NCBI GenBank assembly: GCA_026414185.1
Contig: JAOAJL010000002.1
Span: forward strand, 11,075-75,074
DNA: 64,000 bases
Reading direction: 5' to 3'
Origin: Candidatus Micrarchaeota archaeon
GTDB taxonomy: Archaea; Micrarchaeota; Micrarchaeia; Anstonellales; Anstonellaceae
Below are positions 3,792 through 62,267 of this stretch, in pieces; the first letter of the stretch is position 1, and the number at the start of each line of letters is the position of its first letter. Made by a program: the position numbers and the translations under genes. Under the pieces are notes generated by a model. That model was not told the DNA's origin. It searched no databases and worked only from the letters and a program-made list of their open reading frames with translations.

Positions 3792-3803
3792 GGGGATGGC
3801 TTT

Positions 3804-4457: not shown

Positions 4458-4461
4458 CGCC

Positions 4462-16977: not shown

Positions 16978-18186
16978 CTAGCGGGCTAATTTCGCAATCC
17001 TGCCGAGTGTTTCTGCGAAAGTTTCTATCTCTTCTTCGGTGTTGTAGATGTAAAGGGAAGCCCTCACGGCACCGCCAGGCGCGCCGAGGGATTCCATGGC
17101 AGGCTGGGCGCAGAAAGTCCCAGAGCGCAGGGCAATGCTGGCAAGGCTGTCTGACATGAGCGCTACCTGATGATGAGGCACCCCCGCGATGTTGAAGCAG
17201 GCAAGCGCACAGCGTTTTTCAGGCGATGGGTGACCGTAAAGGACCGCGCCTTTGACGCCGCCAATTGCCTCAATCAGCCTCTTTGCAAGCTTTCTTTCGT
17301 GCTCCTCAACTGCCGCCATCCCTATCCTTGACATATAATCGCAGGCGGCTCCAAGCCCGGCTGCGCCAGCGTAATTTTGTATCCCGCCCTCAAAGCGCTT
17401 TGCGCCCCTTTTCCATCTGACCTGCCCGATTCTCACGCTCTCAATCGTTTCTCCGCCGACAATGAAGCTGTCAAGCCGCTCAAGCGCGTCCTTTTTTGCG
17501 ACAAGGCAGCCTATCCCGGTAGGTCCGCACATCTTGTGTCCTGAGAAGGCAAGGAAGTCCGCCCCAAGCCTCTTGAAGTCAACCTTGGAATGCGCAACTC
17601 CCTGCGCCCCATCCACCAGCACAGCCGCGCCAGCCTCGTGCGCAATCTTCACGATTTTTTCAAGAGGCGCGCGCATGCCGGTGGTGTTGGTGGTGTGGTG
17701 GACGACAACCAGCGCAGTAAGCCGGTCTATGCAATCCGCAATGCCCTCCTCGTCAAAAGTCCCGTCCGGGTTTGTCCTCATCAGCTCCATCTTAGCCACC
17801 CCTCGCCTTTCCTGTTCCATCACAGGCAGGAGGGCGGAGTGGTGCTCAAGGACCGTGGTGACTATCTTCTTGCGAGAAGAGTAATCAAAGGAGCGGATGG
17901 CAAGGTTCAGGGCTTCTGTGGCATTTTTGGTGAAAACCACTCCCTCCGCATCTGCGTTCAAAAACGCCGCCACCTTCTTCCGCGCCTGCTCAAAAAGCTC
18001 CTCTGTCCTTTTCGCAAGCCGGTGGGCGCTCCTTCCGGCGCAGCCTGCCGCTTGCTCATAGTATGCCGCCTCCGCATCAATGACAGCCTTCGGCTTGAGG
18101 GAAGTGCAGGCGGAATCAAAATATATGGCGCCTGTCTTTTGCAACGCAGGAAAATCCTGCCTGATGCGCCTGGCGTCAAGTGCCAT
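16978..18186 (-). CDS. cysteine desulfurase (SufS/CsdA-like class V aminotransferase)
   Basis: HHTTNTTG, LVDGAQGVAH, FSGHKMCGPTGIG (PLP Lys) and RSGTFCAQP (catalytic Cys). Confidence 0.85.
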   Translation of the reverse strand: MALDARRIRQDFPALQKTGAIYFDSACTSLKPKAVIDAEAAYYEQAAGCAGRSAHRLAKRTEELFEQARKKVAAFLNADAEGVVFTKNATEALNLAIRSFDYSSRKKIVTTVLEHHSALLPVMEQERRGVAKMELMRTNPDGTFDEEGIADCIDRLTALVVVHHTTNTTGMRAPLEKIVKIAHEAGAAVLVDGAQGVAHSKVDFKRLGADFLAFSGHKMCGPTGIGCLVAKKDALERLDSFIVGGETIESVRIGQVRWKRGAKRFEGGIQNYAGAAGLGAACDYMSRIGMAAVEEHERKLAKRLIEAIGGVKGAVLYGHPSPEKRCALACFNIAGVPHHQVALMSDSLASIALRSGTFCAQPAMESLGAPGGAVRASLYIYNTEEEIETFAETLGRIAKLAR

Positions 18187-19141
18187 CTCCTCCCCCTGAA
18201 AGCAGCCGCCTTACCTCATTCTCTGCCTCCTTCACCGCGTTTTGCCCTACAAACGGCTTGCCGTTCACAAAGAATGTCGGCGTGCCGTATATGCCGCACT
18301 CCTGGCCCTCCTTTTCGGTCTTCTGTATAAATGACAAAAATTTCCTGCCAGTGTAGCAGGCGTCAAAGGAAGGGCTGATGTTGAGGCGGTGTGCAATCTC
18401 CAAAAGTGCGGCATCACCCCGCCGCATCACGTCAGCCTGGTTCTCAAAGAGCGCTTGGCGGTATTCCCAATACCTGCCCTGCTCCCCGGCGCATGACGCC
18501 GCCAACGCGGCTTCGGTTGAGTGCGGATGGGAGAGGATGGGAAAGGGCTTGAAGACAAAATAAACGTCGTTTCTGTGCTTCTCAAGCATCTCTCTCACAT
18601 CAGACTCTGCCGACTTGGTGTAGGGGCATACATAGCAGCCGAACTCTATCACCACCACCTTTGCGCTTGCGTTGCCAGCAGTTATCCCGTCAAGCGAGCC
18701 TGGCGCTTTCAGAAACGCCGTGTTGTGCAGGCTGTTGTATGCGCAAAAGCCGCCCTGCGGCCCGTTGCAGTTTCCGTATACAGCAAAGTTGTAAATGCCC
18801 GCAAACGCCACTGCGAAGCTTGCGAAAAATATGGCGGCAAAGGCAAGCGAGAATGCCTCAAAGTGCCTGTTTACGAATGAAGCCGCAGCCGGGCTCACCC
18901 TCATTATTCCCGCTATGCTTGCAGCCTTCAGCTCCTCGTCAAGCCCGGTTTCGCACGGTCTGAGAGTGGCTTTGCGCACGGCGCAGTCAAACGCCCTTGC
19001 CGCAAGCGGCCGGTATTTCGCGGAGAAGACTGAAAGAAAAGCAAAAACGAAAAGAGCGACAAAGCAGAGCACCAAGCAAATCACCCAATTTGCGTGCCTA
19101 CCTTGGCGGCTTTGAGTTGCGCCTCCTTTCCATCGCGTCAA
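18176..19141 (-). CDS. membrane-anchored DsbA-like thiol:disulfide oxidoreductase with Cys-containing N-terminal membrane module
   Basis: The C-terminal domain has FGCYVCPY (CxxC) and GIYGTPTFFVNGK (cis-Pro loop). The N-terminal about 130 aa have 2-3 TM helices and paired cysteines (DCAVRKATLRPCE; GNCNGPQGGFC). TTG start at 19141 overlaps the upstream gene. GTG 19087 is an alternative. Confidence 0.7.
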   Translation of the reverse strand: MTRWKGGATQSRQGRHANWVICLVLCFVALFVFAFLSVFSAKYRPLAARAFDCAVRKATLRPCETGLDEELKAASIAGIMRVSPAAASFVNRHFEAFSLAFAAIFFASFAVAFAGIYNFAVYGNCNGPQGGFCAYNSLHNTAFLKAPGSLDGITAGNASAKVVVIEFGCYVCPYTKSAESDVREMLEKHRNDVYFVFKPFPILSHPHSTEAALAASCAGEQGRYWEYRQALFENQADVMRRGDAALLEIAHRLNISPSFDACYTGRKFLSFIQKTEKEGQECGIYGTPTFFVNGKPFVGQNAVKEAENEVRRLLSGGGDGT

Positions 19142-26236: not shown

Positions 26237-26270
26237 TTGCACTGTGCCCTTTTGCTCCAGCGCAAGCAAT

Positions 26271-26283
26271 CATTTTAATATTC
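26271..26283 (+). promoter_or_regulatory. TATA-like box of the prepilin-like operon (leaderless first gene)
   Basis: CATTTTAATATTC centred about 27 nt upstream of ATG 26304. Confidence 0.5.
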
Positions 26284-26303
26284 TATTTGGGTATTTCTCA
26301 AAC

Positions 26304-26966
26304 ATGGGCAAAGAGGGTTTTATCTTCTCGCTTGACGCCTTCGTGGCTTTCACCCTCATCATGATGACAATAGGGCTTCTGATTTTCACGATAGGAACTC
26401 CAAAGCCCTACTACCCGTCCCTTGAACAGACGCACCAGCTTGCGCACGACACCCTGCGGGTGCTTGCCACAAGCTCGGACAGCCCATCAAACCCGACTTA
26501 TCTTGAGCAGATAATAGGCAGAAGCGGCTTGCCGGTCAATGAGATAATGTATCGCGTGGCAGGGGGCAGGGAAACATCCGCGGAGGGCGGAGGGGTGCGA
26601 TACCGCCCCATCATCCCGAAAGGCTATGGCTTCCGGCTGGAAACCTACGAATTTGGCGCATTCCCCTCCGAGAAGCAAAGGTGGGTTGTGCTTTATGACT
26701 CAAGCGAGGATGTGCTTTCCGACAGATACGGAAAGAAATTTTCAAAGGTCCAGGCATCCGCAACCGCCTTCGGCTCAATATACGCAGTTGCGCCGTTCCA
26801 GGGCAAATCCCCCTTCTGCTACCTCTCTTGCAACGGCTTTGACCCTTCCAACCCGCCCTCGTACAACCTCGTGCCGTGCAACGCAACTCCCTGCGACTTT
26901 CCCATTTCAAATTTCATGGCTGGCAAAAACACCATCCAGCTTGTAAGGTTCGTGGTTTATGCGTGA
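26304..26966 (+). CDS. prepilin-like protein 1 (class III signal peptide), 220 aa
   Basis: Start ATG 26304. N-terminus MGKEG/FIFSLDAFVAFTLIMMTIGLLIFTI. The mature part is unrecognised and has 4 Cys near the C-terminus. Confidence 0.7.
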   Translation: MGKEGFIFSLDAFVAFTLIMMTIGLLIFTIGTPKPYYPSLEQTHQLAHDTLRVLATSSDSPSNPTYLEQIIGRSGLPVNEIMYRVAGGRETSAEGGGVRYRPIIPKGYGFRLETYEFGAFPSEKQRWVVLYDSSEDVLSDRYGKKFSKVQASATAFGSIYAVAPFQGKSPFCYLSCNGFDPSNPPSYNLVPCNATPCDFPISNFMAGKNTIQLVRFVVYA

Positions 26967-28644
26967 TTTGATGAAACCAAAACTCCGCCCCGGATGCATG
27001 CGCGGCTTTTTCTTCACAGTCATGGCGCTTGCTCTCCTTTCCTTCATGCTGCTAAGCGTGCAGCTTTGGGTGCGGACATTTGAGCAGTCGGACGCGCGCG
27101 CTTCACAGCGCTTCAAAGGCGAGGCGATGAGGATTGTACTTTCCTCCATCTCTGACAAGGCAATCTCTGATTTTGCAAATGCCTCTGCCTTCTATGCTCT
27201 ACACAGGCTTGTCAATTACTCCGCATACGAAGGGCTTGCGCAGGCGGATTCCTCAGACCCGCGCAACAACGGCACGGGGATGGTGGAGAAAGGCGTCTAT
27301 CTGCTTATGAGGAACGGCACCTTTGCCGCCGGCTCAAAGGACATAGTCTATACCACTGAGGAGATGGAAGCTTACACATTCGCCGCGTGGCAGAAGAGGA
27401 TTCGCTCCGCGGCAAATGTCCTTGGCTTCAACGCAAGCTTCTCCGAGCCCAGAAACTTCTCCTTTAGGCAGATTGACCACTGGACAGCAGGGGTTTCCTT
27501 CCAGATGGACATGGACATAACGGACTTCGCAGGGACAATGCGCCAAAACAAGACACTATACGCCAACGCCACCATCAGCCTCAGCGGTTTTCTTGACCCA
27601 TATATATTCCGCAACGACATGCGCCAGCGGGTTCCCGCGCCTGCGCCGACCGCGGTTGCTCAAAGGCAGGTTTTCAGGAATCCGAAATACAACTCTGCCT
27701 CTGATGTTGCGCCTCGGCTTGTGGTTGACCAGTTCGGCTCCGACGGAGAGGGCTATGGGTGGTTCTACGGACCGATAACAAACCAGTATCCAGACCAGAT
27801 AAACGAGTCTGCTTTGGGCAAGCTCTCCCAATACATCCTTGTCCATGGCTGGGATGACAGCCTTCCGGTCTACGCGGACTTGTATGGCGCCGTGATAGTG
27901 ACCGACCCGCCGGTCTGGGTGGATGGAGGCACAGAAACGATAGGCAACTGCGTCTACAACGTTTCCACCCAAAGCCGCTGCCTCAACTGCATCCGCCGAT
28001 ACGTCCCTACAACAGCGGGCTGCCCGAACAGGCCAGATGAGATTCTCTCGGAGAACAGAACGGACAAGCCGATGATAGTGGTGACAAGAAGCGCCACTGA
28101 TGAAAACTGGCTGGATTCTATCCCATGGGTCTACAGGGCAGGGCTGCCCTCCCCCGAAGACAGGCAGAAGTTTGTCCTCATTGACAACGAATACGCCCTC
28201 CCAGAGCAAAAGCTCTTTGGCAGCCACAGGCTCTATGACATAACTGCCCTGCGCGACATGGCAATATGCGGTTTTTACGTCCCATCGGAGCAGGCTCCAT
28301 CCTTCTTCCAGCGCATGCTCGCCTTCCCTCCTTCCGAAAGCTCGCATCCCCTCGGGATTGAAACCTTTGTGGTGGGGCAGTGGGCTGGGGGGAAGCTTGA
28401 CCAGTCGCATGACGGGCTTTCTCGCCTTGACTGGGAATTTTATTCCGCACAAGCGCCAGCCACGCAGCCGGCAAGGATAAAGGGTATGCCTGGATGCAAA
28501 AGCGTCCAGATGTGCGACATTTCCAACACGGAGCCGGTCAAAGAAGGGGTGGGCAAGTTCCGGCTTTCCATCGATGCCATAAAAAGATACGGGGTTGGGA
28601 AAATAGCATGCAACAGCCAGAATTCCGCCCCATGCGACAAGTGA
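26959..28644 (+). CDS. large prepilin-like protein 2 (561 aa), candidate pilus tip/adhesin subunit
   Basis: ATG overlaps the gene 1 stop by 8 nt. N-terminus ...PGCMRG/FFFTVMALALLSFMLLSVQLWV. Many N-x-S/T sequons and a Cys cluster (GNCVYNVSTQSRCLNCIRRYVPTTAGCPN). The competing antisense ORF is rejected. Confidence 0.75.
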   Translation: MRDLMKPKLRPGCMRGFFFTVMALALLSFMLLSVQLWVRTFEQSDARASQRFKGEAMRIVLSSISDKAISDFANASAFYALHRLVNYSAYEGLAQADSSDPRNNGTGMVEKGVYLLMRNGTFAAGSKDIVYTTEEMEAYTFAAWQKRIRSAANVLGFNASFSEPRNFSFRQIDHWTAGVSFQMDMDITDFAGTMRQNKTLYANATISLSGFLDPYIFRNDMRQRVPAPAPTAVAQRQVFRNPKYNSASDVAPRLVVDQFGSDGEGYGWFYGPITNQYPDQINESALGKLSQYILVHGWDDSLPVYADLYGAVIVTDPPVWVDGGTETIGNCVYNVSTQSRCLNCIRRYVPTTAGCPNRPDEILSENRTDKPMIVVTRSATDENWLDSIPWVYRAGLPSPEDRQKFVLIDNEYALPEQKLFGSHRLYDITALRDMAICGFYVPSEQAPSFFQRMLAFPPSESSHPLGIETFVVGQWAGGKLDQSHDGLSRLDWEFYSAQAPATQPARIKGMPGCKSVQMCDISNTEPVKEGVGKFRLSIDAIKRYGVGKIACNSQNSAPCDK

Positions 28645-28648
28645 TTTG

Positions 28649-29068
28649 ATGAGAGAGAAAAAGGGCCAGTCCGCAACAGAGCTTCTGGTGCTTGCAGGGT
28701 TCTCAGTAGCCTTCATCCTGCCGCTTGTCTTCCTTTTCATGTCATCCTCCAACTCCGAGCTTGGCAAGACGGCATTTTCCCAGGCAAAAGCAACGACAAG
28801 AACCATCGCAGATGAGGCGGGCGAAATCTACCTTCAAGGATACGGCGCAAAAAAGACAATACTGGTCAATTATCCCCAAGGCGTAATAAACGGCTCGGCG
28901 GAAAACGGCGTGGTTGCCCTTACTGTTGATGCGGACGGCAGGCGGGTGGATGTCCTGTCTGCCACCTTTGCTCCTCTCAAAGGGAACCTGAGCGGAAGAA
29001 GGACCGCCGGCCTGCAGAGGATAAAGATTGAAAACATGGGAGACTATGTCAATGTCACATACGGCTGA
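28649..29068 (+). CDS. prepilin-like protein 3, 139 aa
   Basis: ATG 4 nt after the gene 2 stop. MREKKG/QSATELLVLAGFSVAFILPLVFLF, with Glu at +5 as in type IV pilins. Confidence 0.75.
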   Translation: MREKKGQSATELLVLAGFSVAFILPLVFLFMSSSNSELGKTAFSQAKATTRTIADEAGEIYLQGYGAKKTILVNYPQGVINGSAENGVVALTVDADGRRVDVLSATFAPLKGNLSGRRTAGLQRIKIENMGDYVNVTYG

Positions 29069-29615
29069 GCGCCCGGCAGATGAATTGCGCGCCAGACGCA
29101 CCATTGGCGGTGCGAAAGGGCAGGCGGCAGTGGAAGTCCTATCCTACGCCAGCTTTTTCCTCCTTGGCTTTGTGGTGGCAACCGCAGTCTTCTTTCAGAT
29201 GCAGTCAATTGAGATTTCACGCGCAGAGCATTCCTTTGCGCAGGAGATAGCCTATGAGCTTGCAGACCACATCCACACCGCCTTTGTCGCAGGCCCTGGC
29301 TTTGTTCAGAACGTCACGCTTCCCTCCGATATACTTGGCAAGCCCTACCGGATATCAATAAGCAGAAAGCCATCTACGATGGCGCTGGTGCCGGAAACAG
29401 GCTTTGTCTATGTGGAATGGATGGGGCCGTCGCAAAACTCAAGTTTTTCCGCCCCGACCATCACTTCCTCATATTCTCTTGTTTCCTACTCCGGCTTCAT
29501 AGAGACAAACGCAGAGACGGGATTTATAGAAATAAACCCCGCAGGCTACCCCGGCGGCAGGCCGACCATAAGGATGGAAAACATGAACGGCACAATCAGG
29601 ATTTCAAAGGGATGA
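29046..29615 (+). CDS. prepilin-like protein 4, about 189 aa
   Basis: ATG 29046 or 29052 overlaps the gene 3 end. ...RTIGGAKG/QAAVEVLSYASFFLLGFVVATAVFF, with Glu at +5. Confidence 0.7.
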   Translation: MSMSHTAERPADELRARRTIGGAKGQAAVEVLSYASFFLLGFVVATAVFFQMQSIEISRAEHSFAQEIAYELADHIHTAFVAGPGFVQNVTLPSDILGKPYRISISRKPSTMALVPETGFVYVEWMGPSQNSSFSAPTITSSYSLVSYSGFIETNAETGFIEINPAGYPGGRPTIRMENMNGTIRISKG

Positions 29616-30136
29616 GCATGAGAGGGCAGTATTTTTCATTTGACGCGATTATCGCAACAGTCATCATGGTTATCGCCATGACTTCGCTTGTTTCCTACTG
29701 GTTTGGCACCCAGTCGGTAATAGAGTCCCGCCTGCACTCCCTATATTCGGACGCATCCCGCATTGCAGAATCGCTGCTTTCGCCAGGCTCACCGCCAGAC
29801 TGGGAGAAGCAGGAGTTATACGCTGCAAAGCAGATAGGGCTCTGCTCGGACTTCTCAGGCAAGCTTTCAAAAGAAAAGCTTGAGAGGATGAAGCGGCTCA
29901 TAGGGATAGGCTATTCATCCGCGGGCGATTTTGAGCAAAACTATGCCGAGATTGGCAGGCTTCTGAGGGCAGGCGGCAACTACCTTGTTGTGATTGAGCA
30001 GACTGATGATGCAAGCGGCGTGCTTTACGAATTCGGCAAGCGCTATCCGCAGAACGCGACTGAGGTTGCAGTTGCCCATCGCGGAGCGACCCTTGACGGA
30101 AAGCCGATGCGGATGCGCGTCTTTTTGTGGAGATAA
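29612..30136 (+). CDS. prepilin-like protein 5, 174 aa
   Basis: ATGA start/stop overlap with gene 4. MSMRG/QYFSFDAIIATVIMVIAMTSLVSYWF. The track ORF from 29417 is an in-frame upstream extension inside gene 4. Confidence 0.7.
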   Translation: MSMRGQYFSFDAIIATVIMVIAMTSLVSYWFGTQSVIESRLHSLYSDASRIAESLLSPGSPPDWEKQELYAAKQIGLCSDFSGKLSKEKLERMKRLIGIGYSSAGDFEQNYAEIGRLLRAGGNYLVVIEQTDDASGVLYEFGKRYPQNATEVAVAHRGATLDGKPMRMRVFLWR

Positions 30137-36100: not shown

Positions 36101-36208
36101 TGGGATCGTAGGGATTTGAACCCTAACATGCAGGTGTATTCTGTTGCCCGCGCCTTTGCGCAGGCGAGATCTGGAGCCTGCCGCGCTACCAAGTTACGCC
36201 ACGACCCC
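36101..36208 (-). tRNA. tRNA-Trp (anticodon CCA) with 35-nt canonical intron
   Basis: Reverse complement reads GGGGTCG-TG-GCGT-AACTTGGTA-GCGC-G-GCAGG-CTCCAG-[35-nt intron, plus coordinates 36136-36170]-A-CCTGC-ATGT-TAGGG-TTCAAAT-CCCTA-CGATCCC-A. TATA-like box about 30 nt upstream. Confidence 0.85.
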
Positions 36209-49953: not shown

Positions 49954-50155
49954 GCGGACGTAGTATAACCTGGCTAGTATCTTGGCCTTCCACCGGGAAA
50001 CCCATAAGGATTTCCTAAGGCGGGTTTCCGCGCCATCTTCCAAGCGGGGTTCCCCCAGGAAATGGCTTCGGAAGAAAGTCAATGGTCCGGGTTCAAAAGA
50101 TTTGGGCTGCCTCCCAAAATTTGGCAGCCCCTGTCTGCCAATCCCGGCGTCCGCA
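49954..50155 (+). tRNA. tRNA-Gly (anticodon TCC) with two introns (84 nt at 37/38; 44 nt in T-loop)
   Basis: GCGGACG-TA-GTAT-AACCTGGCTA-GTAT-C-TTGGC-CTTCCA-[intron 49993-50076]-A-GTCAA-TGGT-CCGGG-[51-nt T-loop region 50092-50142]-CCCGG-CGTCCGC-A. The intron's 3' part, GGAAG, pairs with anticodon-loop CTTCC. TATA-like GTATTTATATTGG about 30 nt upstream. Confidence 0.8.
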
Positions 50156-50157
50156 TC

Positions 50158-50163
50158 TTTTTT
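50158..50163 (+). terminator. oligo-T run after tRNA-Gly(TCC)
   Basis: TTTTTT begins 3 nt after the tRNA 3' end. Archaeal terminators are typically T-runs. Confidence 0.4.
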
Positions 50164-50837
50164 CAGTTTTGAATATAGACGCAGGCGCCGTCCTCATCGC
50201 AGAAAGAAAACGTGTCATACCTTTGCATACAAGTGTTTAGGTAAGATTCCTTGCAAAGGAAATAGTCTAAACAGGTAAACTTCAGTTCTATTTCAGGCAC
50301 CATTACCTGAGTAATCCCTTTTTTTTCATAATAAACTCTCAACTGCGCCTTAGCGTCCTTTACAATTGAATTAGCAGAGGCACTTCGGCCATATAAGCGC
50401 GGCTTGTTGCAGATAGAATCGTGGGATATCTGGATAAAAACAGATTCGGAGGTAGCTAGATTTATGCTACATCTTCCGATACAGCTAAAAGGCCCAATGA
50501 CAACGTGCTGCCAGTCGTCATAACTTTTTTGGTTCCCGTAGCGAATTTCACTTGCATTTCCGTTTACCGTAATGTTCAGAATCTTTATTGGGTAAGGTTC
50601 GTTGTTCACAACCCTGATAACCAGCGTATCTTGAGCATTATTGCCAATCCGTATGACAGAACCGTAAGCCTCAAGAATGCCAATCGGTCTGGCGCTTCTC
50701 CAGTAAGCCTCTGACTGCAATTGGCTGATTTCCCCGGATTTTCCTGCCGAGGAAATCACAAAAGAAACAGCAGCAATCCCGATAATCAATATTGCTCCAA
50801 GTATAAGAAGATATTCAGATGAGCCTTGCGCCTTCAT
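50163..50837 (-). CDS. prepilin-like protein (class III signal peptide) with Cys-rich C-terminal region, 224 aa
   Basis: MKAQG/SSEYLLILGAILIIGIAAVSFVI...SEAYWRSARPIGIL. C-terminal CLDYFLCKESYLNTCMQRYDTFSFCDEDGAC. Lower GC than surroundings. TATA-like box about 31 nt upstream. Confidence 0.75.
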   Translation of the reverse strand: MKAQGSSEYLLILGAILIIGIAAVSFVISSAGKSGEISQLQSEAYWRSARPIGILEAYGSVIRIGNNAQDTLVIRVVNNEPYPIKILNITVNGNASEIRYGNQKSYDDWQHVVIGPFSCIGRCSINLATSESVFIQISHDSICNKPRLYGRSASANSIVKDAKAQLRVYYEKKGITQVMVPEIELKFTCLDYFLCKESYLNTCMQRYDTFSFCDEDGACVYIQN

Positions 50838-50964
50838 ACCCTCCCTTTTTTGCTTATGGCAATAAAAAAGTTGACCTTACTTGGCCTTCCCACTCATCAT
50901 CACCATTTATAAACCATTTGCCACAAAAAGAAGGCAGTTGTGCTTTTGTTGAGAGGTGAAAAAC

Positions 50965-51846
50965 ATGAGGATGGCATTTGTAGCATTCGTTTTGCTCGTG
51001 GCGCCTGCCATATTAAGCGCAGGAGTGCTGACGCAGATGACAACTGCCTTTTCATATGTCGGCTATCCGTGCAACAGCCACGGCATAGACACCATCAGGC
51101 TGGCAAATGCGCCTGGCGATGTTCCTTGCGACCCTAATACTGACTGGTATTATTACTGTGCCGAGGTCATCCGCCTCAACTCAAGCAGAATCAACTCTTT
51201 TGGAGGACCTGGGGACGTCCTTCCCGGCAACTATTACTTCACCACTATCTATATTGACGTCATAGGCAGGACCGTGGAGCTTAACGAAACCCTCTCTGGA
51301 GTACAGGACAGAAACGCGCCAAAGCACCTCTGGCGCCCGCGCGTTTTTGCTAAACTGCCGACAAGGTCATGCTTCAACTGGGAATACCTGGAATTCAACA
51401 ACCCGCAAAGCATCATAGCATTTATTCCCGCAGGCAACAACTCCACAGGGCAGAAAGGCGGCTTTTACCTCACAAACGAATCCATCGGATTTTACACTCC
51501 TGCGGACTCAATGGAAGCGGTTGCCGGCGGCGAAACGGACATGCCCTCTGTGGATGTGAAATCAGACGCAGGAATAATTCTGAAGGAAATCGGCACAGAG
51601 CCTGCCTACGCAGCAATACGCCTTTATAACCTTGGCGCGCAGGGCTGGGGCTTCAAAAAGTCCAACTCCGCCTTTGACATGATGTTTTACAAGTGGACGG
51701 GCTGGAACCAGTTCCAGACTGTGCCCATGCCGTTTACCACCGAGCGCGGAACCTACTTCCCCAAGAACCCAACCTACAACCAGACAAACTTTGACATCCA
51801 GCTTTACTCCAGCCTTTCAGCAGGACCGCGGGCGTCAAAAAGATAA
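50965..51846 (+). CDS. secreted hypothetical protein (293 aa)
   Basis: ATG 50965 lies 5 nt after GAGGTGA. Signal peptide MRMAFVAFVLLVAPAILSAG. Rich in Asn/Thr/Tyr/Gly with paired Cys near the N-terminus. No family recognised. Confidence 0.7.
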   Translation: MRMAFVAFVLLVAPAILSAGVLTQMTTAFSYVGYPCNSHGIDTIRLANAPGDVPCDPNTDWYYYCAEVIRLNSSRINSFGGPGDVLPGNYYFTTIYIDVIGRTVELNETLSGVQDRNAPKHLWRPRVFAKLPTRSCFNWEYLEFNNPQSIIAFIPAGNNSTGQKGGFYLTNESIGFYTPADSMEAVAGGETDMPSVDVKSDAGIILKEIGTEPAYAAIRLYNLGAQGWGFKKSNSAFDMMFYKWTGWNQFQTVPMPFTTERGTYFPKNPTYNQTNFDIQLYSSLSAGPRASKR

Positions 51847-51858
51847 AAAAGGCGCCTC

Positions 51859-52560
51859 TTAGGTGCAGCTAGACGGAAGACACGTGCCACTCACGCATTC
51901 AAAGTTTCGTCCGTAGAGGTCTTCACATTCCTCATTGCTTTTGCAGTAGAAATACTCATGGCAGGGAATGAAAAGCTTCTGGGTGCCTCGCTGAAGCTTT
52001 AGCAGCCCCCTTGTTTCATAGTATATATCCACATCGGCAAGCACATAGGGGTTTATTGAGTTCCATCCCTGCGCCACAGAACTGCAAAAACCAAAAGCCG
52101 GCATCACTACCACAAACTTTTCCTTTTTTGGGTTAAGCACAATATCCGGGCAGCTCAGATTTCTATGTAGCAGCCCAGTGCAGCTTCTAAAGTTTTCCGT
52201 GGAAACAATCGGTTCTCCAGCAATGCCCCCCTGCCCTACCACAATATCTCCTTCTACAAAAAGCGGACTATTGGTGGAGCCGCTTATGTTGATTCCCCTG
52301 ATGTATATCCTGCTGCTTTCCATATTTTTGAGCTTCAAAAGAAACCCCTGTGCGTTAGATGAACAGGAATAAGAGGTTCTTCCGCCCAGTGCCCCAACTA
52401 TCGCAATGGGCTTTGCAGTGCTCCAATAAAGCTCCGACTGTGTCTGCCTGATGTCAGGCGTAACCTTTGGATAAAAAAGAAGAAGGCTGACAACAACGAT
52501 GGCAATAACAAGCACGGCGGCAAGAAGCATGAGGTATTCAGAGGAGCCTTGCGCCTTCAT
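51859..52560 (-). CDS. prepilin-like protein (paralogue of 50163-50837) with Cys-rich C-terminal region, 233 aa
   Basis: MKAQG/SSEYLMLLAAVLVIAIVVVSLLL...SELYWSTAKPIAIV. C-terminal CHEYFYCKSNEECEDLYGRNFECVSGTCLPSSC. TATA-like GCATTAAAAGCC about 26 nt upstream. Confidence 0.75.
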   Translation of the reverse strand: MKAQGSSEYLMLLAAVLVIAIVVVSLLLFYPKVTPDIRQTQSELYWSTAKPIAIVGALGGRTSYSCSSNAQGFLLKLKNMESSRIYIRGINISGSTNSPLFVEGDIVVGQGGIAGEPIVSTENFRSCTGLLHRNLSCPDIVLNPKKEKFVVVMPAFGFCSSVAQGWNSINPYVLADVDIYYETRGLLKLQRGTQKLFIPCHEYFYCKSNEECEDLYGRNFECVSGTCLPSSCT

Positions 52561-52644
52561 AAAACAATCTCGCTTTGTAGCATTAAAAGCCTATGCTCGT
52601 GCTCCCATTATCCAATTATATTAATTGCGGACAAAAACGGCATT

Positions 52645-53070
52645 ATGGCATGGAAGATGGACGAAATTGACCGGAAAATACTTGCAATCCTGCGCGAAAA
52701 CGCAAATATCCCAAATGCCGCCCTTGGAAAAAAGGTAGGGCTTTCAGAGCCCGCGGCGCGAAGGCGGGTGGCAAACCTCCTAAAGCGAGGAGTAATACGC
52801 AGATTCACAATTGAAGTCTCGCAGGCAGGCGCGGTTTCAGCCATCGTCTTTGTTCGCGCCTCCCCGCAGATTCCTCTTCCAAGGATAGCAGGCGAGATTT
52901 CCAAAGTTGATGGGGTCGGCTTCCTCTACGAGCTTTCAGGGCAGATAGACATCGCCTTTAGCATATTTGCGCAGGACATAGAGTCCCTCAATGCGAAAAT
53001 AGACGCCATCCGGGAAATTAAGGGCGTGGAAAAGACCGAGCTGGCGATAATAATGAAAAAATGGAGGTGA
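52645..53070 (+). CDS. Lrp/AsnC-family transcriptional regulator
   Basis: Start ATG 52645 (MAWKMDEIDRKILAILRENANIPNAALGKKVGLSEPAARRRV...), an HTH plus RAM-like C-domain. TATA-like AATTATATTAATTG about 25 nt upstream. Confidence 0.85.
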   Translation: MAWKMDEIDRKILAILRENANIPNAALGKKVGLSEPAARRRVANLLKRGVIRRFTIEVSQAGAVSAIVFVRASPQIPLPRIAGEISKVDGVGFLYELSGQIDIAFSIFAQDIESLNAKIDAIREIKGVEKTELAIIMKKWR

Positions 53071-53087
53071 AAAAGGCAAACCCTGCC

Positions 53088-53426
53088 TTAGCAGCCGTGC
53101 GCCTGCGTAGCCGTCGGAGTGGGGTTTTGGTTCTTCTTTATCGCTCCTATCTTTTCAAGATGGGCGATTCTGAAAAGCACTGTTTCCGGCGCAAAGCCAA
53201 GCTTTTTGCCTATTTTTTCGGCAATCTGCTGGTTGTTCATGCCCTCTGACGCCAGCCAGGCGTAATCCCTAAGGATGCGCTTCTCAATCTTCTTGCGGTT
53301 GTTGAAAAGCTTGCGGTCAATAAATTCCCTGGAGCTTGGCACAAGGTAGCGCCTGAAAAAAGCGCCGATTCTGCTTTGCTCTTTGCCCAAGGCTACAACG
53401 CCGTTTTGGCTTTTCATGCTCTGCAT
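53088..53426 (-). CDS. small hypothetical protein, possible HTH
   Basis: 112 aa. GMNNQQIAEKIGKKLGFAPETVLFRIAHLEKIG looks HTH-like. Confidence 0.5.
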   Translation of the reverse strand: MQSMKSQNGVVALGKEQSRIGAFFRRYLVPSSREFIDRKLFNNRKKIEKRILRDYAWLASEGMNNQQIAEKIGKKLGFAPETVLFRIAHLEKIGAIKKNQNPTPTATQAHGC

Positions 53427-53441
53427 TTTTCCACCTCCAAT

Positions 53442-54581
53442 TCATTCAAGCATCTTCTGCAATAGCAGAGGCATCTTCCCTGCCAGCAGCAGAAAGTCCG
53501 ATTTTGAAACCCATTCTTCCGCAGAATGCGCGCCCCCTCCTTTAGGCCCAATGGTTATCACCGGCATCTCAAGCGCAAGTATGTTCTCATCCGCAACGGT
53601 CATCCCCCAGGAGAGGGATGGCTTGCCAAAATGCAGCCTGTAAAGGGATAGGAATTTTCGGACCTGCGGGTTGCGAAAATCTGTCCTGTAAGGCGCAAGA
53701 TAGGGCGTCTTTCTTTTGGGTATGCAGACGGACCAGCTGCTTCCTTGCGGAAGTTTCAGCCCCCGCAGGTGCTTTCTTATGTGCGCAAGCAGGCTTTCCG
53801 GCGTGTGCGGCGGGGCGTAGTGGGCGTCCAGTTCCAGAACCGCATCCACAGGGACGGAAAGGAAAGATGAATCAGAAGCCAGTTTGCGTATGAAAAGCCG
53901 GCATCTTCCGAACGTGCTTTTTGGAATTGGGACCCTGCCGAGGGCTCTGCCAAGCCTAATGCTGAGGTCTATCGCGTTTACCCCAAGCTCCACTGCTCCG
54001 TGGGCTGCCTTGCCCCTGATGCGGAAGTGGAAGACTGTCCTGCCCCGCCGTCCGAGGATTATCGGCGGACGCCCATTTCCCCTGGCTTTCCAGCCAGGCG
54101 CATCCGGTATCTCGTGGCATATCGCAAGCGAGCAGTGCCGGTAGTGTCCTGCCCTCTGCGCTGCCCAAGTTCCTTCCGAAATGTTCTCCTCGTCAGCAGT
54201 AAGCACTATCCTGATGCCTCTTTTAGCCGGTCTGCAGTATTTTGCGCACAAAAGCACAAGGGCAAGCCCTGCCTTCATGTCAAAGCAGCCAAGCCCAAGT
54301 ATCCTGTCGCCTGCTGTCCGCATGCGAAAGGGGTTTCTCCTGCCGTAATCGCACGGCGGGACGGTGTCAAGATGGGCTGAGAGAAGCAGGCTGCCTTTTC
54401 TTTTCCCCTTCTGGGCAATCACGTTGAAGCGGTTGGGCGCAAACTCCTCAAGCCGGACAGAAAAGCCGCACTGCTGAAGGTAGGAAGCGCAGAATTCGGC
54501 GAGCCTGCGCTCGCGCGGAAAGACCGAATTTATGGAAATTAGCTTCCGCAAGAGAGAAAGGGCTTCAGAATCCTCTGCCAT
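53442..54581 (-). CDS. M20-family metallopeptidase/deacylase (ArgE/DapE-like)
   Basis: LLRKLISINSVFPRE... and LLSAHLDTVPP motifs. 379 aa. Overlaps the upstream gene by 17 nt. Confidence 0.75.
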   Translation of the reverse strand: MAEDSEALSLLRKLISINSVFPRERRLAEFCASYLQQCGFSVRLEEFAPNRFNVIAQKGKRKGSLLLSAHLDTVPPCDYGRRNPFRMRTAGDRILGLGCFDMKAGLALVLLCAKYCRPAKRGIRIVLTADEENISEGTWAAQRAGHYRHCSLAICHEIPDAPGWKARGNGRPPIILGRRGRTVFHFRIRGKAAHGAVELGVNAIDLSIRLGRALGRVPIPKSTFGRCRLFIRKLASDSSFLSVPVDAVLELDAHYAPPHTPESLLAHIRKHLRGLKLPQGSSWSVCIPKRKTPYLAPYRTDFRNPQVRKFLSLYRLHFGKPSLSWGMTVADENILALEMPVITIGPKGGGAHSAEEWVSKSDFLLLAGKMPLLLQKMLE

Positions 54582-55656
54582 AAAAATTCACCGCAGGCTT
54601 CTGGCTTTTCTTGGCATCCGGAATGATTCCGCGCGCCTGGAGAGAGCCGTAAGTAGGCAGGCAGTCTGAGTTGAAGGCGCGGTTTTTCATCCTGTTTTCC
54701 AAAACAAGCCTCTGCGTTTTTTCATCTCGCAAGAACATCCCAAGCCCGCGCACCACAGCATTATTTTTCGTCTGGTAGTTGCGCACCCTCAAGTCCATCA
54801 CGCCATCGCCCTTCCTTATCGGCGTGCCGCTTGATGTGATTATGGCAGGCCCGTGGTCCACAAGCTCATCAACCACATGCAAAGTCGCGCCGGTGGTTGC
54901 CCTGGCTACCCCGCCCTGCCCTGCGGAAATGCGCACCTGCCCATCCAAAAACTCGTGCTTCACGCCAGTCCTTTCAAATATCCTTCTCATTGCACCTTCA
55001 TTGCCGTTCCTGCGGATATGCAAATCCATTCCTGAAGCAAGCTGGCTGAAAGCATCGTGCTTCTCTTGCCTGCTTTCAGCGTAAAGCACTGAGCGAAGGC
55101 GCGCGTCTGCAGTGGGGGTTATGCCGGGCACCTCGCTTGCAATGCCCGGATGTATGTTGAGTATCAGCCCTCGGTAGCCCTCCTTTTCATCAAGCATGAC
55201 CGAGTTGAAAAGCACGGCGTAGGAGTCGGAAAGCACCAAGTCTATGTTCTTTTCGCGCAGGAAGGACAAAAGCCTCCTTTCGTATTCCACCTTTGCCTGG
55301 TGCTTTTGCGGGTTGGCAACCTTCTGCCCGCCCTCCTCTATCCTTGAGGGCATGCTTCGCCAGCCTGAAGACTCCTCAACATGAAAAGCAATCCCGCGGG
55401 TCCGGCAAAACTCCTCAAGGAACTGAAACGATTTCATCTTGCCTGTGCCATTGCCAACCCCGTTGTCATCAACTATGACAGCGGCAATCTCCAAATTTTT
55501 CACATTTGGGTTTCCTGCTTCAATTGCGCGCTGCAGGTATTCCAGCGTTGGCACTATGCGGCTGTCGCTTCCAACCCCCTCCTTTTCAAGCTCCCGCGGG
55601 GAAGTTATGTATGCCAGCCTTATCTTTCTCTCCGGCTGAGCCTGCCTTTCTTCCAT
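54565..55656 (-). CDS. divergent formyltransferase-fold protein (PurN/Fmt-like catalytic core with large insertions)
   Basis: LILNIHPGIASEVPG (Asn-x-His) and GATLHVVDELVDHGPAII (Asp) resemble the formyl-transfer core. 363 aa. TATA-like box about 29 nt upstream of ATG 55656. Confidence 0.6.
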   Translation of the reverse strand: MEERQAQPERKIRLAYITSPRELEKEGVGSDSRIVPTLEYLQRAIEAGNPNVKNLEIAAVIVDDNGVGNGTGKMKSFQFLEEFCRTRGIAFHVEESSGWRSMPSRIEEGGQKVANPQKHQAKVEYERRLLSFLREKNIDLVLSDSYAVLFNSVMLDEKEGYRGLILNIHPGIASEVPGITPTADARLRSVLYAESRQEKHDAFSQLASGMDLHIRRNGNEGAMRRIFERTGVKHEFLDGQVRISAGQGGVARATTGATLHVVDELVDHGPAIITSSGTPIRKGDGVMDLRVRNYQTKNNAVVRGLGMFLRDEKTQRLVLENRMKNRAFNSDCLPTYGSLQARGIIPDAKKSQKPAVNFYGRGF

Positions 55657-55851
55657 GGCTTTGCTTCTGGGGGCATCAGTTTAAAAACTAATCGTTATTT
55701 TGCAACTAAAAAAGAAACAAAAAATGTAAAATAGTTATAAATTCGTCATTTTTTTAAGTCAGAAAGACTAAAAAAGTCGTAAGAATCCAGCCTTGCGCCT
55801 TCAGCAAACAATTAATAGGGTGAGGACTGCATCCTTGCCATCGGTGGGGCG

Positions 55852-57075
55852 ATGGTTGAGAGGATTGGCAGGCAGGCAATAAGGCTTCACCGCAAGGCAA
55901 AAGGCAAGCTTGCGGTCTTGCCCAAGGTTGACTGCAGCACAAAAAGAGGGCTTTCCCTCGCCTATACCCCGGGAGTTGCGGCGGTTTCTCAGGAAATAGC
56001 GCGCAAGCCAGATGCCGTCTATGAGCTGACCTCAAAATGGAACACGGTCGCCGTAGTTTCTGATGGAAGCAGGGTGCTTGGCTTGGGCAACATAGGTCCC
56101 CTTGCCGCTCTTCCTGTCATGGAAGGCAAGGCGGCGCTTTTCAAGTCCTATGCGGCGATAGACGCCTGGCCTATTTGCCTTTCCTGCCGCTCGGAGGACG
56201 AGGTGGTTGCCGCAGTGGAGGCAATCTCCCCCTCATTTGGCGGGATAAACCTGGAAGACATAGAGTCTCCCAAGTGCTTCTCGGTGGAGCGGCGGCTTGT
56301 CTCCGCGCTTGACATACCTGTTTTCCACGACGACCAGCATGGCACTGCGGTTGTGGCGCTTGCAGGGCTTGCAAATGCTCTTGAGCTTGTGGGGAAGAAA
56401 AAGCAAAATGCGAAGGTTGTTTTGGCAGGCGCAGGCGCGGCTGGCTATGCCATCGCAAAGCTCCTTGTCGCAGAAGGGTTCTCAGAGGTGCTGGTGTGCG
56501 ACCGCAGCGGGCTGATAAGCAGAGAGAATGCCAAAGAGGCGCACAAGCGCGAGCTTGCCGAAATCACAAACAGGGGTTGCTTGGAAGGCAGCCTCAAAGA
56601 TGCTCTTGCCGGCGCGGACGCATTTATCGGGGTCTCATCGCCCAACATACTGTCAGCCGCGGATGTGAAATCAATGGCGTCCTCACCAATCATCTTCGCA
56701 CTGTCCAATCCCGTTCCTGAAATCTCTCCAGCTGAGGCGAAAAAGGGCGGGGCTGCCATATACGGAACTGCTCGGGCTGACCTGCCCAACCAGATAAACA
56801 ACGTGCTTGGCTTCCCAGGCATTTTCAGGGGCGCGCTTTTCGTTCGCGCAAGAAGGATTTCCGACGCAATGAAGCTTGCCGCCTCGCACGCGATTGCCAA
56901 GGTGCTGGACGGTGAGCTTTCAGAGGAAAAAGTCGTGCCTGACGCATTTGACAGGCGAGTGGTGCCGGCAGTGGCAAGGGCAGTTGCGGCAAAGGCAATG
57001 CAGGAGGGGCTGGCAAGGATAAAAAGAACCAGAAGGCAAATCTCCTGTGAGCTTGAAAAGCTTGGCCTTGAATAA
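55852..57075 (+). CDS. NAD(P)-dependent malic enzyme (short prokaryotic form)
   Basis: LSLAYTPGVAAVSQEI, VVSDGSRVLGLGNIG, GINLEDI and VLAGAGAAG motifs. 407 aa. Confidence 0.9.
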   Translation: MVERIGRQAIRLHRKAKGKLAVLPKVDCSTKRGLSLAYTPGVAAVSQEIARKPDAVYELTSKWNTVAVVSDGSRVLGLGNIGPLAALPVMEGKAALFKSYAAIDAWPICLSCRSEDEVVAAVEAISPSFGGINLEDIESPKCFSVERRLVSALDIPVFHDDQHGTAVVALAGLANALELVGKKKQNAKVVLAGAGAAGYAIAKLLVAEGFSEVLVCDRSGLISRENAKEAHKRELAEITNRGCLEGSLKDALAGADAFIGVSSPNILSAADVKSMASSPIIFALSNPVPEISPAEAKKGGAAIYGTARADLPNQINNVLGFPGIFRGALFVRARRISDAMKLAASHAIAKVLDGELSEEKVVPDAFDRRVVPAVARAVAAKAMQEGLARIKRTRRQISCELEKLGLE

Positions 57076-60685: not shown

Positions 60686-61231
60686 TCAGCCCCCGCAGGC
60701 TTTCGGCTTTGGGGATGAGAACTGGCCGCACACCCAGGAGCGGAACTGCTCCTCAGGCATCTCGCCTGCCTGCACTTGCTTGCCGTTTATTATGAAAGTC
60801 GGGAAGCCCACAAAGTCGCCCTTCTGCGCATAGTAGCTGAAAACCTCCGCGACTGCTGAATCGGACTGCCTGTCCTCGTCCCGCCAGCGCCTTATGGCGA
60901 ACCTCTCAGCGGGAAGCTCAGACTCAAGCTTCTGGACTATGGGCTTCATCTTGGCGCAGTGCCCGCACCAGTCGGCATAAAGAAAGTCCATGGTCACTTC
61001 CTTTGTGGGCGCAAGCTTTGCCTCCATCGGGCTTGCCGCCTTATTTTGTTGAGCAGCTGTCTGCTGGGCAGGCTGCTGCTGCGAGGCGGCTTCAATTTCA
61101 GCCGCCTTGCTTTCTATCTGTCTGGCTATGCCGGAGAGGGCAAGGTAGGTAGTGCCTGAAACCACAATCGCCGCCAGCATAATCGCAATAGCCACCGCAT
61201 AATCCGCTTTATTCTCTTGCTTCTGTCCCAT
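60686..61231 (-). CDS. membrane-anchored thioredoxin-like protein (WCGHC)
   Basis: ATG 61231 lies 6 nt after GAGGTG. N-terminal TM YAVAIAIMLAAIVVSGTTYLAL, a Gln/Ala-rich linker, and the FLYADWCGHCAKMKP active site. Confidence 0.8.
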   Translation of the reverse strand: MGQKQENKADYAVAIAIMLAAIVVSGTTYLALSGIARQIESKAAEIEAASQQQPAQQTAAQQNKAASPMEAKLAPTKEVTMDFLYADWCGHCAKMKPIVQKLESELPAERFAIRRWRDEDRQSDSAVAEVFSYYAQKGDFVGFPTFIINGKQVQAGEMPEEQFRSWVCGQFSSPKPKACGG

Positions 61232-61241
61232 GGCAAGCACC

Positions 61242-62117
61242 TCAATTGAATGCTTTCAGCACAGTCTGGAAGTCCTCATATGGAAGGGCGCCTGCGAAAA
61301 ACACCCCGGCGCCTGCCCCGTCAACCTCAACAACAGCCAGCTCAAGCTGCCCTCCGTACTTGTTGGCTATGGTCGCGGCGGCAGAGGCAAGCTTTGCTTT
61401 CAGCGCATCGCTTCGGTCCTTGGGGGAGTAGATGAAGAAGCTTGGCGTTCCCTGCACGCCGAATCTCTGCCCTTCTGAAAGTTGCGCGCTTACCGTGCCT
61501 GCAGTCTGGTTGCCGTCAAGGCAGGCGTTAAATGCGGTTATGTTCAGGCTGAGGTTTGCCGCATAGGCTTTCAAATCCTCTATTTTGAGGGCTTTTTGGT
61601 TGGCAAACAGGATGTCGTGCATCTCCCAGAACTTGCCCTGCCTGCCTGCGCACTCCGCAGCCTCAGCCGCCTTCTGCGCATTCTGGTGGAACGGCAGCGG
61701 GTAGTGGCGGAAAACAACCGCAACGTCATAATTCTGCGCAATCTGCTTTATGGTCGGTGTCGCCCTGCCGCAATAGGGGCACTCAAAATCGGAATATTCC
61801 ACAATGCGGACTTTGGCATCCGGCTTGCCTTTTGTCTGGGCTGAAGAGTAGTCCGCAAGCTTGATTGGATAGGGCTTGAAATCCGCCGCGGTCAGCCGGC
61901 GCGGCTCCGAGGGTTGCTGTGTTTGAGCCTCCTGCTGTTGCTGAGAAGGCGCCTGCTGAACAGGCGCAACGCCTGCGCTTAGCTTTATTTTTGAAATCGC
62001 CTGCTGTATGCCGCTTGCAGAAATCCAGATTGTCGCCGAAACAAGAAGAGCTGCAAGTATCACCGCTATACCTATGGCATACTCTCCCCTTTCAGCATCC
62101 GCGCTTTTTTCAGCCAT
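61242..62117 (-). CDS. membrane-anchored DsbA-like thiol:disulfide oxidoreductase (CPYC)
   Basis: ATG 62117 lies 5 nt after GGGAGGTGA. TM YAIGIAVILAALLVSATIWISA, a Gln-rich linker, EYSDFECPYCGR, and GVQGTPSFFIY (cis-Pro loop). Confidence 0.8.
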   Translation of the reverse strand: MAEKSADAERGEYAIGIAVILAALLVSATIWISASGIQQAISKIKLSAGVAPVQQAPSQQQQEAQTQQPSEPRRLTAADFKPYPIKLADYSSAQTKGKPDAKVRIVEYSDFECPYCGRATPTIKQIAQNYDVAVVFRHYPLPFHQNAQKAAEAAECAGRQGKFWEMHDILFANQKALKIEDLKAYAANLSLNITAFNACLDGNQTAGTVSAQLSEGQRFGVQGTPSFFIYSPKDRSDALKAKLASAAATIANKYGGQLELAVVEVDGAGAGVFFAGALPYEDFQTVLKAFN

Positions 62118-62267
62118 TCCGCTCACCTCCCAATCAAATGGCAATTTGCTGGAATTTTCTGGCAATCTTTTTAAATGGCACTACTTCTATTCGGCGCGCA
62201 GCGGCAGAATCAGGCAAGACAAGCCTGCAAGACAAACCTTTTTATTTGATGCAAGAGTTTGCCAACC

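Follow-up and report, generated by a model that had tools for sequence, protein, structure and literature searches.

A probably inherited, fast-evolving cassette of predicted pilin-like surface proteins beside a two-intron tRNA-Gly gene in a Candidatus Micrarchaeota archaeon

Introduction

Pilins of the DUF361/Class_IIIsignal type (PF04021) are known from archaea such as Methanococcus maripaludis, in which they include the EppA-processed proteins EpdA-E and MMP1685. The DUF361-type motif, Q-x-S-x-E-x-x-x-L, reportedly follows the cleavage site, as Szabo and colleagues are said to have described in 2007. Bacterial type IVa pilins carry a C-terminal D-region that is closed by a single disulfide loop and varies between strains. 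In a separate line of work, archaeal tRNA genes with several introns, some at non-canonical positions, have been described for the Thermoproteales and for ARMAN/Micrarchaeota. The locus considered here touches on each of these systems: it is a cassette of two paralogous pilin-like genes and an intervening gene for a secreted protein, located next to a tRNA-Gly(TCC) gene in a 64,000-nucleotide stretch of DNA (hereafter the window) from a Candidatus Micrarchaeota genome (GenBank assembly GCA_026414185.1, contig JAOAJL010000002.1, positions 11,075 to 75,074). The source organism belongs to the DPANN archaea, and relatives of its purB gene, at most 76% identical, all come from metagenome-assembled genomes of Ca. 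Micrarchaeota or Micrarchaeia.

The pilin-like proteins constitute a new and unannotated family inside a known kind of protein, that of the type IV pilin-like proteins. The region as a whole is probably an inherited, fast-evolving cassette of pilin-like surface proteins and no recently integrated island, a reading that draws upon the signal motif, the paralogy and predicted fold of the proteins, the distribution of the family, the synteny and composition of the region, and the divergence of the cassette relative to its flanks.

Two pilin-like paralogs with a common architecture

Both pilin-like genes lie on the minus strand. Paralog A (50163..50837) is an open reading frame (ORF) of 224 amino acids, supported by Pfam and BLASTP matches, and paralog B (51859..52560), of 233 amino acids, has the same architecture. 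An earlier note on this DNA had described them as prepilin-like proteins that share a leader and a post-helix motif, end in closely spaced cysteines and bracket a secreted protein encoded on the plus strand, and each part of that description is borne out. Firstly, BLASTP aligns the paralogs at 31% identity (E 1e-16), residues 1-10 (MKAQGSSEYL) are identical in the two, and the post-helix motif SE(A/L)YW..A(R/K)PI is present in both. Secondly, the order of parts is the same in A and B, in that a three-residue leader (MKA) and QGSSEYL lead into a hydrophobic helix, which is followed by a beta domain and, at the C-terminus, by a module rich in Cys. This last module contains five cysteines within the final 36 residues of paralog A (8 in total) and six within the final 34 residues of paralog B (10 in total). 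Thirdly, the N-termini, which read MKA followed by QGSSEYLLILGAILIIGIAAVSFV and MKA followed by QGSSEYLMLLAAVLVIAIVVVSLL, and for neither of which an earlier in-frame start is possible, match the class III signal motif QxSxExxxL (QGSSEYLLI and QGSSEYLML), with a short, charged leader ending in A ahead of a hydrophobic stretch of approximately 20 residues. The Pfam model PF04021 (Class_IIIsignal) matches the two proteins at E 6e-4 and 7e-4.

Relatives came to light in a HMMER scan that covered 1.84 billion representatives exhaustively; word-index homology searches with the paralog alignment and with a 17-sequence family alignment returned essentially self matches alone, and exact look-ups of purB and of paralog A yielded no record. 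The family so defined comprises 701 representatives at E<=1e-3, with 172 at E<=1e-10. Approximately 15 of the 701 are full length, inclusive of the Cys-rich tail, and most others cover roughly the first 100 profile positions, from the signal through the S..YW..A.PI helix to the first strands. In an alignment of 83 sequences, residues Q4, E8, L13 and L17 are nearly invariant, and the full-length subset has eight conserved Cys columns. Class_IIIsignal is matched by 58 of the 83 members and Arch_flagellin, weakly, by 10 of the 83; for the globular part of family members, neither Pfam nor NCBIfam has a model. Matches to the three cassette proteins in PHROGs and NCBIfam were likewise zero. The sole relative found with an organism name is a hypothetical protein of Ca. 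Micrarchaeota, the members that were looked up carry no functional name, and the literature searched contained nothing specific to the pilin-like family.

Members of the family are often clustered in groups of two to five paralogs (related loci L099, 4950-10521; L100, 2624-8195; L091, 7906-10723; L002, 364-3949), and beside such clusters there recur an unannotated protein of approximately 265-281 amino acids with one transmembrane helix as well as charged proteins of approximately 143-177 amino acids. The 265/281- and 164/177-residue neighbors in L091 and L002 show no BLAST similarity to one another or to the window.

Structure prediction adds to this picture. With the 83-sequence alignment as input, AlphaFold2 returned a model of paralog B with a predicted local distance difference test (pLDDT) score of 89.6 and a predicted template-modeling (pTM) score of 0.83, in which a helix at residues 6-28 is followed by a break at the Pro-rich residues 29-34, a second helix at 35-47, a series of beta strands, a small helix at 209-216 and a hairpin. 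The model thus combines the extended N-terminal helix and the beta-rich globular domain by which a pilin fold is recognized, and it places the Cys cluster on the small C-terminal helix and hairpin. The top Foldseek match in the PDB is the Aap pilus of Sulfolobus acidocaldarius (8q30; probability 0.97, E 2e-3, TM 0.24/0.35, 16% identity), and the list of matches also includes immunoglobulin (Ig)-like sandwiches and the archaellum proteins FlaF and FlaG. The best result of a profile search against PDB sequences was a Pyrococcus furiosus flagellin entry (5o4u) at E 0.084, and the Cys-rich tail had nothing meaningful in the PDB sequence search. The model supports a pilin-like architecture, yet it places the family close to no solved pilin. 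Together, motif and model support the view that the two proteins are prepilin-like and probably share the architecture of type IV pilin-like proteins.

Divergence and synteny of the cassette

The evolutionary history of the cassette is best seen in comparison with the related Micrarchaeota locus L097. Between the window and L097, the best pilin matches are 31-32% identical while identities for the flanking genes (lrp, folC, folD, purB, glyA and an inositol-monophosphatase-family gene) run from 61 to 85%, among them 76% for purB, 85% for glyA and 62% for lrp; a secreted NHL-repeat protein stands at 41%. The cassette had earlier been called fast-evolving as one of two possibilities, and this contrast with the flanks upholds that suggestion. 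Within the family alignment, A and B are 30% identical to each other. Paralog A is 42% identical to its nearest relative, P0006, and paralog B is 38% identical (32% by tblastn) to its own nearest relative, P0013, which occupies the same position in L097. Because each paralog is closer to other Micrarchaeota proteins than to its sister copy, the duplication that produced them is old.

Around the cassette, the frame composed of lrp, the tRNA-Gly gene and purB-glyA-folD is conserved among relatives, and the cargo between lrp and the tRNA gene varies. When the window is flipped, its order is lrp (-), paralog B (+), the middle gene (-), paralog A (+), tRNA (-) and purB (+); in L097 the order is lrp (-), P0013 (+), a 251-residue paralog with a Cys tail (+), a 136-residue ORF, tRNA-Gly (+) and purB (+). 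In both genomes, therefore, the slot holds two family genes that are oriented alike. Elsewhere, the cassette is missing from this slot in L015, where the slot is empty and consists of a 477-bp gap, and in L010, L016, L020, L021 and L041, whereas L019 has one family gene beside the tRNA gene and in L009, where no lrp was detected, one lies between the tRNA gene and purB. None of these relatives is close, purB identity reaching 76% at most, and the orientation of the tRNA gene flips between lineages. The comparison of presence and absence that the earlier note had proposed as a check on a horizontally acquired islet accordingly divides: six relatives are without the cassette, two have a single gene, and L097 has a syntenic two-paralog cassette.

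In three of the relatives the slot has different contents: L010 (5755-7158), L016 (approximately 5057-6421) and L021 (7722-9074) each have a membrane protein of 450-467 amino acids there. These proteins are 73-83% identical to one another, and no homolog was found in the 64-kb window.

Taken together, the synteny, the divergence and the old paralogy indicate a locus that is ancestral, at least for part of the clade, that evolves fast, and that has been repeatedly lost, rearranged or replaced.

Base composition

The region had also been described as an islet of lower GC (guanine plus cytosine) content, and this holds for part of it. In 300-nucleotide windows, GC is 0.40-0.45 at 50100-51000 and 0.45-0.48 at 51900-52700, compared with 0.52-0.59 in purB/glyA. 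Relative to 62 non-overlapping long ORFs of the window (mean GC 0.543, standard deviation 0.026), paralog A, with a GC of 0.428 (z -4.4) and a GC at third codon positions (GC3) of 0.449 (z -3.1), is the lowest, and paralog B, at 0.476 (z -2.6), is the second lowest. The neighboring lrp gene is low too (0.489, z -2.1). The middle gene, by contrast, is ordinary in both GC (0.519, z -0.9) and GC3 (0.623, z 0.0), and because its composition is native the anomaly is a mosaic and no uniform block. The sliding-window check that the earlier note called for shows that the tetranucleotide distance peaks, for the whole 64 kb, in the 2.4-kb window beginning at 50201, approximately 3.6 standard deviations above the mean. 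Homologs of the pilin-like genes in L097, L009, L019, L002 and L091 are not low in GC; the two family genes of L097, at 0.572 and 0.589 against 0.563, are normal.

A tetranucleotide deviation approximately equal to that of the cassette was observed at 3800-5200, which overlaps a Rad50/SMC-like gene (4462-6765) and an ORF (3804-4457) without a Pfam match.

Weighing the explanations

If the cassette is an inherited set of pilin-like surface proteins, as we favor, its products would be expected to work as follows. The MKA leader would be removed before Gln4 by an archaeal prepilin peptidase encoded elsewhere, and the hydrophobic N-terminal helix would serve the mature protein as a membrane anchor. 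A PilB/ArlI-type ATPase and a TadC-like platform may then assemble a pilus-like filament with the helices as its core, leaving the beta domain and the C-terminal module of approximately 35 residues, with its 5-6 cysteines, exposed at the surface. Disulfides in these exposed parts would be made by DsbA-like oxidoreductases encoded in the window, and the surface might serve adhesion, plausibly to a host cell. A beta domain and Cys module that face outward and are disulfide-bonded would explain the rapid divergence of the proteins.

The window encodes two DsbA-like proteins, at 18176-19141 (minus strand, 321 amino acids) and 61242-62165 (minus strand, 307 amino acids), and a thioredoxin at 60686-61240 (minus strand). 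The DsbA-like pair and the thioredoxin fit extracytoplasmic disulfide formation for Cys-rich secreted proteins.

Several points weigh against the reading of an inherited pilin-like cassette. The PF04021 scores of the paralogs, 20.1 and 19.8 bits, fall under the gathering score of 23.7, and the fold matches are weak, with none at E<1e-3 and with generic Ig-like sandwiches scoring approximately as well as the pilus. The formation of a filament is something that we infer in its entirety, and Pfam identified no prepilin peptidase, assembly ATPase or platform gene among the ORFs scanned in the window, which covers 64 kb of a 105.8-kb contig from an incomplete genome. The L097 protein at the position of paralog A shares only 22% identity with it, and the N-terminus of that protein is degenerate. 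Finally, since homologs elsewhere are not low in GC, simple vertical inheritance does not account for the reduced GC and GC3 seen in the window copies, which leaves room for allelic replacement.

A serious rival, if on balance an unlikely one, holds that the proteins carry a class III signal without being filament subunits, acting in its place as membrane-anchored or pseudopilus-type surface proteins, comparable to the bindosome sugar-binding proteins of Sulfolobus, or as minor or tip pilins. A mature part of approximately 220 residues with a Cys-rich module is large for a major pilin, no assembly machinery was found nearby, and clusters of four to five paralogs occur in L099 and L100. Moreover, the second paralog lacks QxSxE in some relatives (P0034 and the 251-residue protein of L097), which suggests that incorporation into a filament is inessential for the family. 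The best fold match, however, is a filament-forming pilin, and the major pilins predicted for euryarchaeal systems usually have stand-alone genes (Makarova et al., 2016, PMC4858521), an arrangement that the paralogs here match. Also on this side of the argument is the presence in the window of a separate set of five proteins that is more like a minor-pilin set than the cassette is.

This set lies at 26244-30136 on the plus strand and consists of five consecutive ORFs with class III-like N-termini (..GKEGFIFSLDAFVAF, MRGFFFTVMALALL, KKGQSATELLVL, AKGQAAVEVLSY and MRGQYFSFDAIIATVIM), the last of which has a weak match to DUF7287 (E 0.0024). No assembly ATPase is adjacent to it, the next genes encoding an AAA/Mg-chelatase-like ATPase and a DUF2070 protein. 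To judge from these N-termini, the set resembles a minor-pilin operon and could supply minor pilins.

A second rival, which we consider distinctly unlikely, accepts an ancestral locus and proposes that its alleles were swapped by homologous recombination from a lower-GC Micrarchaeote, in effect a replacement of surface antigens via the lrp/tRNA flanks or via the 5' ends of the pilin-like genes. Such an exchange is in keeping with the depressed GC and GC3 of both pilin-like genes and the low GC of lrp around a native middle gene, and many related Micrarchaeota loci do have a GC of 45-50% (0.45 in L013, 0.49 in L015). The 5' ends of the two genes (50806-50838 and 52529-52561) have 27 of 29 bases in common, 18 of them consecutive and identical through the start codon, despite a protein identity of approximately 30%. 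This similarity could reflect a recombination handle or selection on the mRNA 5' end; ten conserved codons are too few to decide between the two, and too few to demonstrate gene conversion. On the other hand, no donor was found, the nearest homologs being 38-42% identical, and the low GC may stem from relaxed codon selection or from amino acid composition, Ile accounting for 11.6% and Asn for 5.8% of paralog A.

The last rival is that of the earlier note, an islet gained by horizontal transfer and integrated beside the tRNA-Gly gene. The cassette does adjoin the 3' end of the tRNA gene, it contains the two lowest-GC genes of the window within the 2.4-kb region of highest tetranucleotide deviation, homologs in relatives are not low in GC, and the same slot lacks the cassette in six relatives. 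The search for an attachment (att) site that had been suggested as a check gave no direct repeat: on neither strand of 50176-57000 does a stretch of at least 12 nucleotides of the tRNA gene and its flanks reappear, the only recurrence is one 11-mer of the anticodon arm, against a chance expectation of 0.8, and a repeat finder adds nothing. Pfam, NCBIfam and PHROG link the three cassette proteins to no integrase, mobility or phage family. With the middle gene native in composition, two family paralogs sitting in this slot in L097 with the orientation unchanged, the adjacency of tRNA gene and purB conserved whatever the cargo, and Micrarchaeota as the origin of the only named relative found, an integrated islet is highly improbable, and that claim is abandoned here in favor of the inherited cassette.

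A phage origin was considered as well and rejected: scans of viral contigs returned no relatives, and no match below E 1e-3 was found in a viral fold library. Because the orientation of the tRNA and pilin genes flips among relatives, inverted repeats that might mark an invertible segment were also sought, and only weak arms of 71-83% were detected.

A secreted partner and the neighboring genes

Between the paralogs, on the plus strand, lies the gene for the secreted protein (50965..51846; 293 amino acids from the ATG at 50965, or 296 from a GTG at 50956), so that the three ORFs are arranged on the two strands as first described. The product has a Sec-type N-terminal signal (MRMAFVAFVLLVAPAILSA, with the boundary before Gly), four conserved cysteines and six N-x-S/T sequons; no known domain was recognized by Pfam or NCBIfam, and the PDB sequence search returned nothing meaningful. 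An AlphaFold2 model based on three sequences (pLDDT 31.5) was unusable. Its gene is convergent with that of paralog B, and 12 nucleotides separate the stop codons. Homologs form two clusters only (51% and 46% identical), and scanning metagenomes with the protein returned only two loci, both already known. In both instances the homolog (P0004 and P0005) is followed by a convergent family gene (P0007 and a 260-residue protein of L002, respectively), with a spacing of approximately 40 nucleotides on the P0004 contig and of 6 nucleotides past the called gene end in L002. L097 is without the middle gene. The tight convergent pairing of the two genes in three lineages marks the middle protein as a conserved partner of one paralog, and the middle protein is better conserved (46-51% identity) than the pilin-like protein beside it (approximately 30-36%). 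Its role is possibly that of an accessory or adhesin factor.

The intergenic region between paralog A and the divergent secreted-protein gene (50838..50964), as read from the sequence, contains several short boxes. On the minus strand, TTTTTTATTG lies 23-32 nucleotides and GGGAGGGT 1-8 nucleotides ahead of the start codon of paralog A; on the plus strand, a TTTATAAA box is found at 50907-50914 and GAGAGGTGA ends 6 nucleotides ahead of the ATG at 50965. These are candidate promoter elements, a function that we infer for them.

At the far end of the cassette, as the earlier note had stated, an Lrp/AsnC-family regulator of 141 amino acids (52645..53070, plus strand) is divergent from paralog B. 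It matches the Pfam models HTH_AsnC-type (4.8e-17) and AsnC_trans_reg (1.5e-8), and its likely start is the ATG at 52645, which gives an N-terminus (MAWKMDE) that matches relatives. Because lrp is kept in relatives that have no pilin-like gene (L015, L010), it counts as a frame gene that bounds the slot at its far side, outside the cassette. Between lrp and an M20 peptidase gene lies an ORF of 112 amino acids (53088-53426, minus strand) with weak winged-helix matches, for which tblastn found no counterpart in any relative.

The tRNA-Gly(TCC) gene

The boundary of the slot on its other side is the tRNA-Gly(TCC) gene (49954..50155, plus strand), which is divergent from purB here. ARAGORN and Rfam reported nothing at the unspliced gene, which was overlooked because two introns interrupt it. 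When 49993-50076 and 50097-50140 are spliced out by hand, ARAGORN recognizes a perfect 74-nucleotide tRNA-Gly(TCC). The first intron (84 nucleotides) is at the canonical anticodon-loop position 37/38, and the second (44 nucleotides) is inside the T-loop, its junction being ambiguous by 1-2 nucleotides. In the predicted fold of the precursor, the acceptor and T stems form (z -4.1). Nearly identical exons are found beside purB in 12 relatives (L009, L010, L013-L017, L019-L021, L041 and L097), in which the anticodon-loop intron ranges from 0 to more than 100 nucleotides and the T-loop intron from 0 to more than 200, such that either can be missing. The tRNA-Gly(TCC) gene proposed in the earlier note is real, and it is ancestral at its present position. 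The spacing given there, 8 nucleotides past the 3' end of the tRNA gene, is also correct in that the stop codon of paralog A begins at the eighth base (50163) after position 50155, with seven bases between.

Elsewhere in the window, a 108-nucleotide Rfam tRNA match at 36101-36208 (minus strand) is absent from the ARAGORN output and is presumably another intron-containing tRNA gene. Two-intron tRNA genes that are invisible to standard finders affect any reasoning about tRNA-adjacent islands in such genomes.

Significance and comparison with known systems

DPANN archaea, Micrarchaeota among them, are believed to live fixed to host cells, and a role for pili in the contact between ultra-small cells and their hosts has been proposed (PMC9938205). 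A description of the pilin repertoire of DPANN archaea or Micrarchaeota was not found in the literature searched. The present locus defines an unannotated pilin-like family of 701 representatives, a subset of which has a C-terminal module predicted to be rich in disulfides and a recurrent secreted partner, and the family thereby offers concrete candidates for surface structures; its interest, which is moderate, lies mainly in a possible DPANN host-contact structure. A bolder proposal, for which we hold out little hope, is that the Cys-module pilin-like proteins and their secreted partner make up an apparatus of host recognition in Micrarchaeota, with the lrp/tRNA-Gly slot as a hotspot of diversification by allele exchange. 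If this were true, the cassette would set host range in the manner of pilin and tail-fiber cassettes in bacteria and phages.

Among known systems, the tRNA-Gly(TCC) gene resembles the multi-intron tRNA genes of other archaea in its combination of a 37/38 intron with a T-loop intron and in the variable presence of these introns among relatives. Set against those genes, it has nothing unusual for the phylum, and the only practical consequence is that finders overlook it. With tRNA-linked islands the cassette has in common a position at a tRNA 3' end, an atypical composition and a variable presence in relatives, while it differs from them in having neither an att repeat nor a cassette integrase, in its mosaic composition and in the existence of a syntenic two-paralog relative.

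The proteins themselves are comparable to three kinds of pilin. Like the subunit of the S. acidocaldarius Aap pilus (8q30), they are predicted to have an N-terminal helix and a beta-rich head; the Aap subunit, however, comes from another phylum, has no Cys-rich C-terminal module and is without a signal of the Q-x-S-x-E type. Like bacterial type IVa pilins, they have a variable C-terminal segment that would be exposed and is predicted to be stabilized by disulfides, although the module here, with 5-6 cysteines in approximately 35 residues and a further 3-4 conserved cysteines, has no sequence relationship to the D-region. From PF04021-type archaeal pilins they differ in that their scores fall under the gathering cut-off, in that the globular part (the S..YW..A.PI helix, beta domain and Cys tail) has no model, and in that the genes are not beside a peptidase or ATPase gene. 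What they share with these pilins is a short basic leader whose last residue is G or A, the signal Q-x-S-x-E-x-x-x-L/I and a hydrophobic helix of approximately 20 residues. The cassette is, then, not a new kind of system.

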